Shown piece by piece: positions 3,401 to 61,091 of a stretch of 64,000 bases of DNA. The notes under the pieces are model-generated. The model worked only from the letters and a program-made list of their open reading frames with translations. It did not search any database and had not been told where the DNA came from. Position numbers and translations under genes: made by a program. Numbering within the stretch: position 1 is the stretch's first letter; every line of letters starts with the position of its first letter. This stretch comes from Vairimorpha necatrix (taxonomy: Eukaryota), in the NCBI GenBank assembly GCA_036630325.1, contig CP142727.1, positions 992,001-1,056,000 on the forward strand. Direction: 5' to 3'.

Positions 3401-4595
3401 TCGTCTTCGGGTACACTGTGGCGTTATAAGGATATTAAGAAATCTTTTAGTGTCTTAAACTAAAAATGAAAAGTCAAAAGCAAAACTTAATTGCAAAATT
3501 CAAAAAAAAAAATCAACAATAGAGAGATAATATGTTGAAGAAGTTAACAAGCATAAGGAGTATTATTAATTGTCGCGCGCCCGGCGCGCGACCGCGCCCA
3601 GTGCGCGACCGGAAGATTTCGTGAAGAAATTCTACATAAACATATTGTATGTTCAATCTAACTTCAGATTGGAGAATTAAAAGTGTATTATTAACAAGGT
3701 TATATACAAAAAGATCTTATTTTTGTAGTAACACTTTACTAACGCCCACTTACATCATGAACATAAACAAAATACAAGATTTTTTAAATTAAAGGTAGAT
3801 TTTTGTCAAATTGGGTTAAGCTTTTTTTAATTTTATAAGCGCATTAAGATTATAACAAAGAGCTCTAACGGAGAACTCATTAAGCTATTTATTTATATGC
3901 ATATACATAAAAAAAATTACAAATTTAAGGGTACATTGTATTCCATTATTTCTTTTCATAATGCTTAATTAGCTCTATTTTTATGGTTTGATTTTTATAG
4001 ATCAGCTTAGAAGATTCTTAGAATTTAATTAAACTTCAATTTATAAGAATTTTTATAAACAATAAAAATAAATTAAAAGGGACATTTATATAGAAACTAG
4101 AGTAATTTTTTTATTACATTAAAAACTCTTAACTCAAGTATTGATTATCTTGGAAAAATAAAATAAAAATAAAAATATGATGCTGTGCTCAAATATAAAG
4201 TTTTAGAAAAAATACCTAAATTTGAGTTCACAAAAATTCATTTTAGTTAATTAGGTACACATAGCTGTGTAAAGATTACATTTTAGACGCCCGTTCAATA
4301 AATAGTCTACGAAGGTCATTTGAATATTATATTTCTAGTACGTTGGTATTTGCATTTTTACACTTTATTCTTTAAAATATCGCACATCATATATATATAT
4401 ATTTATATATATTATAAAATAATTATATTAAAAAACGGGCTTAGTGACATCATATAAACAGATAACTTTCTTAATTCAAAAACATACAATTTTCATGAAT
4501 AAAACATTAAATGCAGTTTTCAATATATAAATTATATAAAAAGATCGTAAACAACTAAAATTTATAAAAACAAATAGTAAAATTTATCTAAAGGC

Positions 4596-5814
4596 TCATT
4601 TATTTAATTTTTTAACCAGATTCATTGATATAATTTCCTCCTTACCTTCGTATTTTAACCTTAATCGGATATTCGATAAAATTTCTATTACTTCCCGTGG
4701 TTCACTATAAAAAGAACTCAATTTTAGTTTTTTTGTTTTCGTATTAGTGTCGAAATCTTTTTTTACAACCACTAAATCTCCAATAGAAAAATCATTGATG
4801 AAATTATGAACACATTTTCTGTCCATTCGAGCCAAATATTTTTCATTACTCACTGCATCACTTCCTGGAATCGTATTTACAGTTGTTTCATTTTCATCAG
4901 TGCAATCATCATCATTCTCCCTTAGACATGTATTGTATCCAAGGCTTCCGTACCATAACTTATATGTGACTTCTTTGTAGCAGAATGTACAGCGGTATTA
5001 TAGTCATAAACAACTTTATTAATGACCGCTAGCCAGTTCTTATTGTTAAAACCTTTTTCGCAAAGATGTTTTTGCAGGTAGCGAGTAAGGGTTTGATTAA
5101 ACCTCTCGACTTGTCCTTGACTCTGGGGATGACGAGGTCTGCCATGAATAAGCTTTATTTTATTTTGTTTACGAAATTCAACTAATGTTTCATTTTTAAA
5201 CTCTTTGCCGTTGTCGCATTGAAGTATAGCAGTAAAGCCTAACGTTTGAAATTTGTATTCTAACCGTGATACGACTTCAGCGGCGGTTTTAGTTTTCAAA
5301 GCAGAGATAAAAGCATATTTAGAAAATACATCTATTGCTGTGAGTATTAAACTAAAACCATCATTTTCATCACTATAAGTCCTCATATCAACAAGATCAA
5401 TAATAAATCTTTCGCCGGGTCTTTTAGCGACGATGTGCTTGAACGTTTCTTTTGTTTTAAGAGGTTGTGCTGTCATGCATAAATTGCATTCACTGCAAAC
5501 ATCCCTTACAATACACCTAGGTATACTGAAGTATTGTTCCTCACACTTATCATAGAGACGGTTCGCGCCATAATGATGCTGCTGATGAAGTCCTTGGACC
5601 TCTATTTTCATAGCTTGGACCATAGTCTTACAAGTACTCTTTTGTGCCAGCCCCCCACATCCTTTAAGAAAAGAATGTTATCCACAAGAATAAAACTTTT
5701 GGATTTCTTCTTTAGACTATATTTTAAATGTTTGTCACATTCTAGGCTAACCACGTTCCCTTTGAGTATTTGGACAAGCCGATCATACTCAACTTGGTCT
5801 TTTACTTCTTTCAT
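4596..5814 (-). pseudogene. Ginger integrase/transposase split by two frameshifts
   Basis: HHCC (HQQHH..CSEC); DDE (IDLVD, CDNGKEF, GQVERFN); C-terminal FSIGDLVVV. ORFs 5608-5871, 4922-5623 and 4596-4853 are collinear pieces. Confidence 0.85.
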
Positions 5815-5881
5815 AAAGAGTAAAAAAAAATTTTTTTTAAAATGATGAATCTTTACTATAATTTTTTGCAAAATATTTTAG

Positions 5882-5957
5882 TCAACCAGCTTGGCACAGT
5901 GGTTGTTATGGTCATCCGTCACTTTGAAGGTCGTATGTTCGAATCCCAACATGTTGA
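5882..5957 (+). ncRNA. tRNA-derived Pol III-type module inside Ginger G1 (degenerate, not a canonical tRNA)
   Basis: 76 nt; A-box-like TGGCACAGTGG; B box GTTCGAATC; closing stem TCAAC/GTTGA; homolog at 61806-61878. Confidence 0.55.
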
Positions 5958-57967: not shown

Positions 57968-58025
57968 TTGTGCATATTATTTTTTCTATTTTTGTTAAAT
58001 AATATTTAATTCGGGAGTTAGTAAA

Positions 58026-61000
58026 TGTAGGGTTTAGAACCCTTAATAAATAAATGGTTAACATGGCGAACACAAGGATGAACAGGGAAACAAGAGAGTC
58101 CCGTAGTCAAGAGGCTAGAACATTAGAGAAAGAGGCAATTAGGATAGATAAGAGACTAAAGTTAATATTGAAAGTTGAGTGGAAAGATGTTATGGATTTG
58201 GCATCTGCGAACTTGCAGGATTATATTTTTGAAAATTTTTGTGACGGAAGGAGCAGTTGGGAGGAAATTTATAAAGGCTTACAAAAAGGAGCAGAATTTG
58301 AGAGAGAGTCAGAAGAAAGACAAGAAATGATTAAAGAGATTATGGATAAAGTGTTGAAAGAGTTTAGGGAAGAAAGAAAAGAAAATCTTAGGATGTATAG
58401 GAAAAGAAGAGAAATCAGAGAAACTACAAAATGTTTTATATGTAAGAAAGAAGGGCATTACGCTAGAGAATGTCATGAAAGTGTAGCTGGTAGGGAAAAA
58501 TATAAAATTAAAAAGGAACAAGTTTTACAGAAAGAACCAATTATCAACAATGAAGGGAAAAGATGTAAAACAGTAAATAAGTTAGAAAATTTAATTGAAA
58601 AGTATCCGGAAGTTTTTAAAGAATCAGAAGAAAAGATAAAATATCTCACAGGAGAGAAGTGTCCAATAAATACTAAGCAAGGTGAAAAGGTTGTGAAAAG
58701 AGGGCAGAATGTGCCATACTACCTTAGGGTGAAATTTGAGGAGTACTTGAATAAGTTGGAAAATTAAGGGGTTATAAGACGTTCCAAAAGTGAGTGGAGG
58801 AGTCCAATAAGAGCACTTGAAAAACCAAATGGGGACGTAAGATTGGTAAGCAATTTGATGGCGTTAAACGATTTGGTTGACAAGGACCCGTACTCACTAC
58901 CGTTAATTAAGGATATTATGAGAGCCACACAGGGGTCAAAAGTATTTACGGTTATCGACTTAAAAGAAGGGTTTTATCATATTGAGATTGAGGAGCACCA
59001 TAAGCACAAAACAGCATTTGAAGTGAATGGTCGAGTATACGAATGGAATAGTATGGTTATGGGGTTTAAGAATTCGCCTCATATAATGCAGAGAGTAATG
59101 AACAGAGTTTTAGATGAATTCAGAGGTAAAGGCGTGGAAGTATATATGGATGATATAGTTATTCATGGTAAAGACGTAAGAGTGCATGACGAGTTACTAG
59201 AGAGGGTAATTAAAAAGTTTAAAGAGTGTGGGTTGAGAATAAACCAAACAAAGATACAATACAAAAAAGATGAGGTGATGTTGCTGGGAGTAACAATTAA
59301 TGGGGAGGTCATGGGACCGAATGAGATTAAAAAGCAGGAGACATTGGAATATAGAAAACCTGAGAATGTTAGAGAGTTAAGAAGATTTTTAGGACTAACT
59401 GGTTGGTTTAGAGACTTTATTCCCAACTATGCGTATAGAACAGTAAGGCTTACTGAGGCTTTAAAGAAAGATGTTAAGTGGAATTGGACGGAGGATATGG
59501 AAAGAGCTTTTGAGGATATGAAGCAAGGCTTGAGAGATATGAAAAAGTTGAAGATTCCGGACGGAAAAAAGCTATTTAGAGTAAGAACTGATGCGTGTGA
59601 TACGGGGATCGGAGCAATTCTATTACAAGAAAATAAAGAGGGTGAGTGGATTCCGATACAATGGGCATCGAAAATGTTGACTCCTACCGAGCGAAGATAT
59701 ACGATAAGTGAGAAGGAGATGTTGGCGGTGTTTTTTGGAATAAAGAAGTTTGAAAGTGATTTGAGAGGAAGGAAATTTCATTTGATGACGGATCATAAAG
59801 CATTAGCAGAGATCAGAAATAAGCCATACTTCAATAATAACAGAATAAACAGATGGGTAGAACAGATACAAGAGTTTGACTTTACAATAGAGTATGTGAA
59901 AGGGGAGTTGATGACAGATGCAGATGCGTTAAGTAGGCAGTATGATCAGGTAGAAGTTTCGGATGAACAAAAAGAAAAGGACAACAAGAGAAAAGAAGTG
60001 ATCGAAAAACAAATTTTGGGAAAAAAGCAGAAACATATTAAAGAAAAGGACGGTAAACAGTATTGGGAATTTTCCACAGGTGAAATGAAATAGATATTGA
60101 GCCTAGATAGTAGAGAACATGAAATAACAAGAGTACATGAGGAGTTAAACCATAGAGGTGTCAAAGGCACTAATTATAACATTAAACAAAGATGGTATTG
60201 GCCTGGTATGAAAAATCATATTAATAAGGTAATTAAGAATTGTGAAATATGTGGGATTAACAATAGGAAAAACACAGGAGGATGTGATTTCGTAGTAACT
60301 AGAAAGAAATTGGAGAAAGTGGCGTTGGATTTAATGGACATAGGTGGAGAGAATAGGTATGTGTTACTGGGTATTGATTACTTTACTAGAAGGTTGTGGG
60401 GTTCGAATTTGAGATGTAAAGAGAGTAGTGAAGTTATAGAGGTATTACAAAAGTGGATAAGGGAAGATGGATTTCCAGAGGAATATGTGACAGACAACGG
60501 AAAAGAGTTTGTAAGTAATAGATTTAAAGAATGGTGTAGTATTAATGATATTAAACATAGGAAAGTGGGCTTAGAAGCTCATGGGAGTAATGGTAGAATC
60601 GAGAGATGCATCAGAACTATAAGAGAGACATTGATAAAGCAAAATGATGGGAATATTTCTGAAAAGATAGAAAGAGCAATCAAAGGATATAATAATACAC
60701 TATATACAGCAATAAAATGTACGCCGATGGAAGCGTGGAGAGATCAAACGGCTGAAGTTATAATTGAAAATGATGAAAATGGAAAATATGCTGGTCGGTT
60801 CAAGAGAAGACACAGAGAGACATTTACAGTAGGCCAAGAGGTAAGAATCGCTAGGAGAGAAAATTTAGGTACACGTGCGAAAACAGACAAGGGAAGATTC
60901 GCGGGTCGCGGAAGGATCGTAGCTATAAGTGAAAATGATTCATATATTGTGAGACTACTGGATGGTAAAATTGTTAAAAAGAGGCATTATGATTTGAAAG

Positions 61001-61091
61001 AGATAAGGAAGAGTTGTTTAGAAGATGGAGAGACTACCCGTCTGGAGGGGGGATGTAGGGTTTAGAACCCTTAATAAATAAATGGTTAACA
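58026..61091 (+). mobile_element. Minimal Ty3/Gypsy retrotransposon, 3066 bp, identical 38-bp LTRs, no protease
   Basis: LTR TGTAGGGTTTAGAACCCTTAATAAATAAATGGTTAACA at 58026-58063 and 61054-61091; TSD GTAAA; PBS TGGCGAACAC; PPT GGAGGGGGGA 61044-61053. Confidence 0.95.
58054..61065 (+). pseudogene. Single-frame Gag(CCHC)-RT-RNase H-integrase polyprotein with two nonsense codons
   Basis: ORFs 58054, 58843 and 60097 share one frame; stops TAA 58765 and TAG 60091; CFICKKEGHYAREC, VYMDD, RTDACD, HEELNH..CEIC, VTDNGKEF, NGRIERC. Confidence 0.92.

Follow-up and report, generated by a model that had tools for sequence, protein, structure and literature searches.

Background

Retrotransposons of the Ty3/gypsy superfamily, delimited by long terminal repeats (LTRs), are well documented in microsporidia, at least in the accessible portions of two published accounts (PMC4202319, PMC2474625). 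The described families closest to those considered here, Nbr1-8 of Nosema bombycis and those of Anncaliia algerae, come from the same host group and likewise encode a polyprotein in a single frame. Nearly all Nbr elements possess Gag, protease, reverse transcriptase (RT), RNase H and integrase, going by the available part of one of these accounts (PMC2474625). The present study concerns four Ty3/gypsy elements, termed El1 to El4, found in a 64 kb stretch of the genome of the microsporidian Vairimorpha necatrix (contig CP142727.1, positions 992,001 to 1,056,000 of the forward strand; approximately 30% G+C), hereafter 'the window', to the first letter of which all positions below are relative. 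Their LTRs are 38 bp (El4), 49 bp (El3), 67 and 64 bp (El2) and about 57 bp (El1) in length, and El3, El4 and their relatives differ from the Nbr elements, as far as the accessible account describes these, in having no room for a protease. A sequence-only reading of the window had proposed that these repeats, despite being unrelated in sequence, share a layout in which a CCC motif, a polyadenylation hexamer and the gag start codon are packed together.

Two well-known elements anticipate parts of such a design. In the Ty1/copia element of yeast, gag starts within the 5' LTR and its frame runs through the primer-binding site (PBS); a start codon in the LTR and a coding PBS thus have a precedent, although the arrangement is far more extreme in El1 to El4. 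Ty1 belongs to another superfamily; its LTRs are around 330 bp long and its promoter region is separate and lies upstream. It does not place its start codon at the junction of LTR and PBS and does not end pol within the LTR. Mag of Bombyx mori, a Ty3/gypsy element with a non-coding leader and trailer, also has unusually short LTRs of about 77 bp, but these are about twice the length of those of El4 and the element itself is larger. Standard LTR-finding programs work with a minimum LTR length of about 100 bp. No statement on LTR lengths in microsporidia, on short LTRs in these organisms or on the minimum length of an LTR was found in the literature searched, the original description of the Nbr elements being beyond the reach of that search, and short-LTR lengths may already sit uncommented in database entries. 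While Ty3/gypsy elements are known from microsporidia, the miniature LTR anatomy described below appears in none of the prior accounts searched.

Microsporidian genes have terse signals of their own, as far as the accessible parts of the relevant reports describe them. CCC motifs are over-represented before start codons in Nosema ceranae and Encephalitozoon cuniculi (PMC2685015), and in the latter species 5' untranslated regions (UTRs) of less than 7 nt and a CCC-like motif are found together with AAUAAA or AUUAAA near stop codons (PMC2803860). Similarly, in seven Nosema species CCC and CCCC motifs have been tied to expression, with the form ACCCTT occurring in N. apis (PMC11592040).

Results

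Miniature LTRs encode both ends of the polyprotein

The elements are compacted almost to pure coding sequence, with LTRs that, among the elements of the window and their relatives, have been cut to 38-75 bp. The LTR opens with bases that encode the end of Pol, including its stop codon, and closes with those for the start of Gag; the purine tract preceding the 3' LTR is itself coding, and the terminal A of the LTR forms, with the TGG that follows it, an ATG that either opens gag or lies in frame with it. El4 (58026-61091, + strand, 3066 bp) illustrates the arrangement. Its 38 bp 5' LTR (58026..58063) holds CCC at 58040-58042, overlapping AATAAA hexamers at 58045-58050 and 58049-58054, and an ATG at 58054 that is in frame with a second at 58063, the A of which is the last base of the LTR. 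The adjoining TGG-led stretch (58064..58077), a putative PBS, is read as gag codons. A single reading frame (58054..61065), encoding a CCHC knuckle, RT, RNase H and integrase with no room for a protease, passes through a coding polypurine tract (61044..61053) and ends in a TAG (61063-61065) inside the 3' LTR (61054..61091, 38 bp), which is 100% identical to the 5' copy. The frame is interrupted by in-frame stops at 58768-58770 and 60094-60096. The element is flanked by GTAAA, at 58021-58025 and 61092-61096, as a target site duplication (TSD).

Relatives were obtained from one scan of prokaryote genome contigs, which returned two microsporidian-like contigs binned into bacterial metagenome-assembled genomes. 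Searching the two bins gave 33 match rows, comprising 26 in G001 (the loci L081, L085, L087 and L089 and 22 other matches) and seven in G002, which contains L082. The bins are contaminated, holding many eukaryotic retrotransposon contigs, several of which are microsporidian-like. L081 has an RT 76% identical to that of El4, a frame that stays open for at least 911 aa and a 38 bp 3' LTR in which, by hand count, 28 of 38 positions match El4, including the GGG, the CCC, the hexamers, the ATG and the terminal TAACA. Identical pairs of LTRs (100%) were found in L085, where repeats of 58 bp accompany a frame of 1095 aa, and in L089, where repeats of 75 bp accompany one of 1154 aa. The LTR of L087 is longer, at approximately 169 bp, and L082 has an LTR-like 5' end of 47 bp on a contig without the 3' end. 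LTR pattern searches in both bins found no further copies, a scan of viral contigs found no relative, and a metagenome scan using an RT alignment found only distant gypsy elements with at most 37% identity.

The ATG at the junction of LTR and TGG lies in the gag frame at six of the eight 5' junctions (El3, El4, L082, L085, L087 and L089) and has been changed in El1 and El2, which are old copies. El2 reads AGG at this point, against ATG in its relative L085. Two proteins of Nosema granulosis begin MANTR and MTYMANTR, and one other relative begins with M and five residues followed by MA. All three beginnings fit a start either at the junction or a few codons upstream, at an ATG of the LTR in the same frame. 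An in-frame ATG within the LTR, with the frame open as far as the junction, is present in El1, El3, El4, L081, L082, L087 and L089 and absent from L085, a test that is also passed by 16% of random segments. In El2 such an ATG, at 25146, is found in the 5' copy only. Because both the 3' copy and L085 carry ATT instead, it is probably a later mutation, with the ATG at the LTR/TGG junction being the likely regular start; the sequence-only reading had placed this ATG correctly, but was probably mistaken in taking it for the regular gag start. We know of no description of the junction ATG as a gag start, and the device is a simple and general one, any LTR that ends in CA next to TGG yielding ATG.

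At the opposite end of the frame, the pol stop codon occupies positions 10-12 of the 3' LTR in El4, 12-14 in L081, 16-18 in L085 and 6-8 in L087. In El2 and El3 the frame continues for approximately 40 nt of the LTR before the stop, and in L089 the stop immediately precedes the LTR. Only some 17-30 nt per LTR are non-coding in the compact members. The suggestion of a coding PBS was borne out for the site at which a PBS would be expected, the TGG-led sequence after the LTR lying in the gag frame; that of a coding U5 applies to most families, in which the 3' part of the LTR is coding, and not to all of them.

Boundaries and domains of the four elements

The ends of the repeats, the adjoining purine tracts, the TSDs and the internal domains indicate that these are four gypsy elements bounded by genuine, if miniature, LTRs. 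Pfam matches in El4 follow the order RVT_1, RT_RNaseH and rve, and in a tblastn map using the El4 frame as query, with its stops read as X, RT, RNase H and integrase are colinear between the repeat pairs of El2, El3 and El4; only RT and RNase H matches were found for El1. The order RT-RNase H-integrase was also seen in L083, L085, L087 and L089. The RT is of the gypsy type, being placed beside named gypsy proteins in a phylogenetic tree. LTRs have the ends TGT...ACA in El4, El2 (3' copy), L081, L085 and L089; atypical ends are found in El3, which finishes in ATA, and in the 5' copy of El2, which begins with TA. The 5 bp TSDs are perfect in El4 (GTAAA/GTAAA) and El2 (ATATT/ATATT) and match at four of five positions in El3 (CATAA/TATAA), and none was found for El1. 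A purine run adjoins the start of the 3' LTR in El2, El3, El4, L081, L087 and L089, the corresponding tract in L085 being GC-mixed. TGG directly follows the LTR at six of the eight 5' junctions, marking a putative PBS, and the TGG-led sites are of three types; neither tRNA genes nor Rfam families were found in the window.

All the motif coordinates previously given for the four elements proved exact when the sequence was re-read. El3 (40335-43447, + strand) has a 5' LTR of 49 bp (40335..40383) with ATTAAA at 40354-40359, CCC at 40360 and an ATG at 40368 that is in frame with the ATG at 40383, formed from the last A of the LTR and the following TGG. Its internal region (40384..43398), which contains a gag knuckle and remnants of RT, RNase H and integrase without room for a protease, has numerous stops and frameshifts. 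The pol frame enters the 3' LTR (43399..43447) for about 40 nt, and the two LTRs are 96% identical over the 49 nt compared, the flanking pentamers being CATAA at 40330-40334 and TATAA at 43448-43452.

El2 (25089-28455, + strand) begins three bases earlier than the repeat that was first recognised. Its 3' LTR (28392..28455) is 64 bp long; the 5' copy (25089..25155) is 67 bp long and starts TATTGTGG, where the corresponding letters of the 3' copy are TGTTGTGG. The two copies also differ in their motifs, with AATAAA and the ATG at 25146 being present only in the 5' LTR, where CCTC replaces CCC, and CCCCC being present only in the 3' LTR, which has ATT at the position of the ATG. Between them, the degenerate internal region (25156..28391) includes gag, a protease (FDTG near 25800), RT, RNase H and integrase, and ends in a purine tract at 28384-28391. 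The TSD, ATATT, is at 25084-25088 and 28456-28460.

El1, on the - strand, has a 5' LTR of 57 bp (11723..11779) with AATAAA at 11757-11752 and CCC-ATG at 11747-11742. The internal region (6164..11722) is degenerate and longer than those of El2, El3 and El4; RT and RNase H extend over 9404-8351, and an integrase C-terminal motif near 6300 stops just ahead of the first half of the 3' LTR. This LTR is interrupted by a 2.56 kb inverted-repeat transposon (3571-6130), which divides it into a first part at 6131..6163, the start of which is approximate, having been set through comparison with the 5' LTR by eye, and a second part at 3533..3570. An integrase match at 5602-4973 derives from the inserted element rather than from El1. 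A 39 nt repeat with 79% identity at first seemed too weak to define an LTR pair, a doubt that was removed by the finding of the two-part 3' LTR and, near 6300, of the C-terminus of the integrase.

Conserved motifs within the LTRs

In six of the seven clade-A families, namely El1, El2 (3' copy), El3, El4, L081 and L085, the first base of CCC is found 22-25 nt upstream of the end of the LTR, L082 being the exception. In L089 and L087 it is at -34 and -52 respectively, directly before a conserved in-frame ATG. The distance from CCC to the first in-frame ATG is 0-11 nt in El1, El3, El4, L081, L087 and L089, and that to the junction ATG is about 19-22 nt in El2 and L085. An AATAAA or ATTAAA hexamer is present in every family examined, in El2 in the 5' copy only. 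It is 5' of the CCC in El1, El2, El3, L085 and L082 and 3' of it in El4, L081, L087 and L089, lying in the last two downstream of the conserved in-frame CCC-ATG; in El4, L081 and L085 it is found 8-10 nt past the pol stop. It had been suggested that a polyadenylation hexamer upstream of the start site would act only in the 3' LTR. This is possible only for the five families with the hexamer 5' of the CCC, since in the other four it would occur at both ends of the RNA.

Chance rates were estimated from random segments of the window with the same lengths as the LTRs, using 200,000 draws and the motifs CCC, A[AT]TAAA and ATG. All three occurred together in 1.8% of segments; CCC was found in 18%, and started at -25 to -22 in 1.7%. 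The binomial P of 1.6e-10 for the CCC offset being shared by six of seven families is not a true probability, as the offset was chosen post hoc and the families are related. Such small values make the case look stronger than it is.

The LTRs, furthermore, are not of unrelated sequence, as had been believed: AACCCTTAA is found at one and the same offset in those of El4 and L085, both of which end in TTAACA. Because this block and this ending are kept while most other LTR columns differ, the LTRs are, judged from their aligned letters, homologous in their 3' halves. The RTs of El4 and L085 are only 41% identical, yet the shared block has been retained at the same offset, and such conservation amid divergence is a stronger argument than the chance rates.

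Similarity to the signals of host genes

CCC was found no more than 14 nt upstream of the ATG in all four non-transposon open reading frames (ORFs) checked (44130, 52292, 57060 and, on the - strand, 36008), compared with 5.2% of 2395 random ATGs, in agreement with the earlier statement that host genes in the window use a CCC-then-ATG start. AATAAA overlaps the stop codon in three of the four. The miniature LTRs carry this host-type arrangement, with A/T-rich sequence and CCC lying 0-22 nt before an in-frame ATG, along with a hexamer like that of microsporidian gene ends; the difference from genes is that the LTR packs both putative signals into one repeat of 38-75 bp, which has to provide an R repeat and the ends used for integration as well. 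The middle of the LTR reads like the end of a host gene followed by the start of another. The sequence-only interpretation is thus supported in part; its proposal that the elements have reduced their LTR to the minimal promoter of the host is a conjecture from the likeness of motifs.

Two of the host ORFs, 52292-53035 and 57060-57800, are paralogues of 247 and 246 aa that have no Pfam match and possess signal-peptide-like N-termini. They share a CCCATAAA-ATG start context and an AATAAA over the stop codon.

Phylogeny, protease content and copy number

The RT tree was obtained by a quick search of 45 rows and 378 columns; 28 rows were unlabelled, a short RT fragment at 18500-20600 was left out, and L087 was labelled as having a miniature LTR in spite of its length of about 169 bp. 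One group of 12 rows, with a support of 97, contains El1 to El4, L082, L083 and L085 along with sequences of Nematocida, Pseudoloma and Vairimorpha and one of the N. granulosis proteins. A second group contains L087, L089 and the other N. granulosis protein. The closest named relatives of the RT are from N. granulosis (84% identity), Vairimorpha apis, V. necatrix, Pseudoloma and Nematocida. Both repeats lay inside the contig at five of the 80 loci from the metagenome scan for distant gypsy elements, repeats touching contig ends being taken as lower bounds or assembly artefacts, and these five, which served as controls, have LTRs of ordinary length (L036, 1529 bp; L050, 205 bp; L062, 331 bp; L067, 459 bp; L077, 922 bp). 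A single branch splits the rows with miniature LTRs from those with LTRs of at least 200 bp. On the question of one origin versus convergence, the tree is compatible with one origin; the homology of the LTRs and the two microsporidian RT clades mean that common descent with conservation explains the shared features, and independent reduction is not needed.

In El4, approximately 37 aa separate the CCHC knuckle from the start of the RT region, with neither a D[ST]G motif nor a Pfam protease match. There is also no room for a protease in El3, L081/L083, L082 and the relatives P0002, P0004 and P0006, while one is present in El2, L085 and L089 and weakly matched in L087. One subclade, comprising El3, El4 and their relatives, has lost the protease, to judge from the spacing of the domains. 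As a protease is usual but not defining for Ty3/gypsy elements, the membership of El3 and El4 stands.

Four sequencing runs were compared in the form of contigs, which give no starts, ends or strand. Near-identical pieces of El4 were found in two metagenome runs, and the El4 copy of the window is without nine bases carried after 58169 by other copies. Word depth in run X2 is 54-86 in El4 bins and 0.2-3.5 in bins that are wholly non-repeat, which hints that there are many El4-like copies, depth not being copy number. Long open frames occur in L081, L085 and L089. A contig joint linking 50601 to 58049 was treated as spurious, having a side of only 28 nt and beginning in a high-copy inverted-repeat element.

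Other repeats and ORFs in the window

The 2.56 kb element inserted into El1 (3571-6130) has 40 bp G+C-rich inverted repeats (3571-3610 and 6092-6131) flanked on both sides by ATTAAT, and encodes a 233 aa integrase-core protein (ORF 4922-5623, - strand; rve and rve_3). It resembles DNA transposons whose transposase is of the integrase type, such as those of the Ginger kind; the repeat arm occurs a third time at 61600-61623. A further frame, at 22058-23437, encodes 459 aa with an integrase zinc-binding domain and an rve core, has GGGG 6 nt before its ATG and has no RT nearby on the same strand. It may be an integrase gene in its own right or belong to a further transposon of the integrase type.

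Smaller elements with inverted termini are also present. One of about 1 kb (32538-33560), with inverted ends of around 55 bp and a broken transposase-like frame, splits the second copy of a 260 bp direct repeat (24816-25074 versus 32327-32537 plus 33561-33614); El2 sits just past the first copy. Another, of approximately 660 bp (49947-50605), has terminal inverted repeats of about 50 bp and no long ORF, and its word depth in run X1 is around 6400, compared with less than 100 for host genes; it is probably a high-copy miniature inverted-repeat transposable element. A tandem array at 1610-2636 consists of four 228 bp units, the first three of which are 98% identical.

Discussion

We favour, with a probability of roughly 0.6, the interpretation that microsporidian Ty3/gypsy lineages have been compacted to near-coding sequence, the middle of the LTR being occupied by gene signals of the host type. 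In the 5' LTR, the A/T-rich stretch and the CCC 22-25 nt before the LTR end would act as a core promoter, with transcription starting just downstream of the CCC. In the 3' LTR, the AATAAA or ATTAAA soon after the pol stop would serve as the 3'-end signal, with cleavage near or slightly beyond the end of the LTR. The R repeat available for first-strand transfer would then measure only about 5-20 nt. A bolder proposition, which we advance tentatively and with some doubt, is that the 38 bp repeats are the shortest working LTRs known, uniting the end and stop codon of Pol, a host-type promoter, a 3' signal, a tiny R, the start of Gag and the integration ends, with a start codon assembled from the terminal A of the LTR and the TGG of the PBS, and that one entire subclade replicates without a protease of its own.

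A number of observations weigh against this interpretation. Its most compact representative in the window, El4, is a dead copy with two in-frame stops, and the flanks of L085 and L089 showed no matching TSD, which could reflect the joining of separate copies in metagenome contigs. The motifs themselves are not uniform: the LTR of L082 lacks CCC, the 5' copy of El2 has CCTC and the order of hexamer and CCC varies between families. A hexamer is found in 20% of random AT-rich segments and, since the families share ancestry, their counts are not independent. Upstream of the host gene at 52292 a hexamer lies beside the CCC, so it may represent no more than the A/T-rich context of a promoter. Lastly, the fixed offset of the CCC could serve reverse transcription or integration.

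It may be asked whether the motifs have any transcriptional role at all, rather than being leftovers of common descent in genuine miniature LTRs that are transcribed from elsewhere, for instance through read-through from flanking sequence, a pervasive phenomenon in microsporidia. The homology of the LTRs, the variable position of the hexamer, the ease with which random segments contain the hexamer (20%) or CCC (18%) and the transcription from both strands, with overrun, described in the available part of a study of E. cuniculi (PMC2803860) are all compatible with such a history. It appears unlikely nonetheless, as the CCC offset is the same in six of seven clade-A families despite the divergence of most other LTR columns, and RNA starting outside the LTR cannot canonically regenerate identical LTRs, such as the 100% identical pairs of L085, L089 and El4. 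The CCC block might instead function in replication, either through a contact resembling tRNA primer activation or as the end recognised by integrase, which would account for its distance being fixed relative to the LTR end and TGG site and not to the first in-frame ATG, which follows it by 0 to approximately 20 nt; the inverted repeat GGGTT..AACCC in the El4 LTR would also suit this role. Yet A/T-rich sequence followed by CCC also precedes all four host genes, the block matches promoter motifs published for Nosema, as far as the accessible text of that work goes, and in L087 and L089 the CCC adjoins a conserved ATG at -52 and -34, away from the fixed offset, making a replicative function improbable as the explanation of the block.

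That the short repeats are truncated remnants of longer LTRs, produced by assembly collapse or decay, is scarcely credible. El1 and El3 are indeed degenerate, and in runs X1 and X2 contigs terminate within the LTR of El4, with records ending at 58046 and 61082. However, flanking sequences diverge immediately outside the repeats, with perfect 5 bp duplications adjoining those of El2 and El4, and on the internal side the repeats are adjoined by the purine tract and TGG; the coding frame occupies the space from LTR to LTR, and independent assemblies yield LTRs of the same lengths (L081, L085 and L089).

If elements with 38 bp LTRs are active, they would set a new lower bound on the content required of an LTR, and the compaction of host-type signals into these repeats, if true, would mean that first-strand transfer is workable with a very short R. 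Gag-pol frames that lack a protease also prompt the question of whether the polyprotein is cleaved and, if so, by what means. Annotation pipelines with a minimum LTR length of about 100 bp would misclassify such elements as LTR-less fragments, such that retrotransposon loads would be under-annotated in microsporidian genomes. The transposons of a parasite would then obey the same rule of near-zero untranslated sequence as the genome that hosts them.

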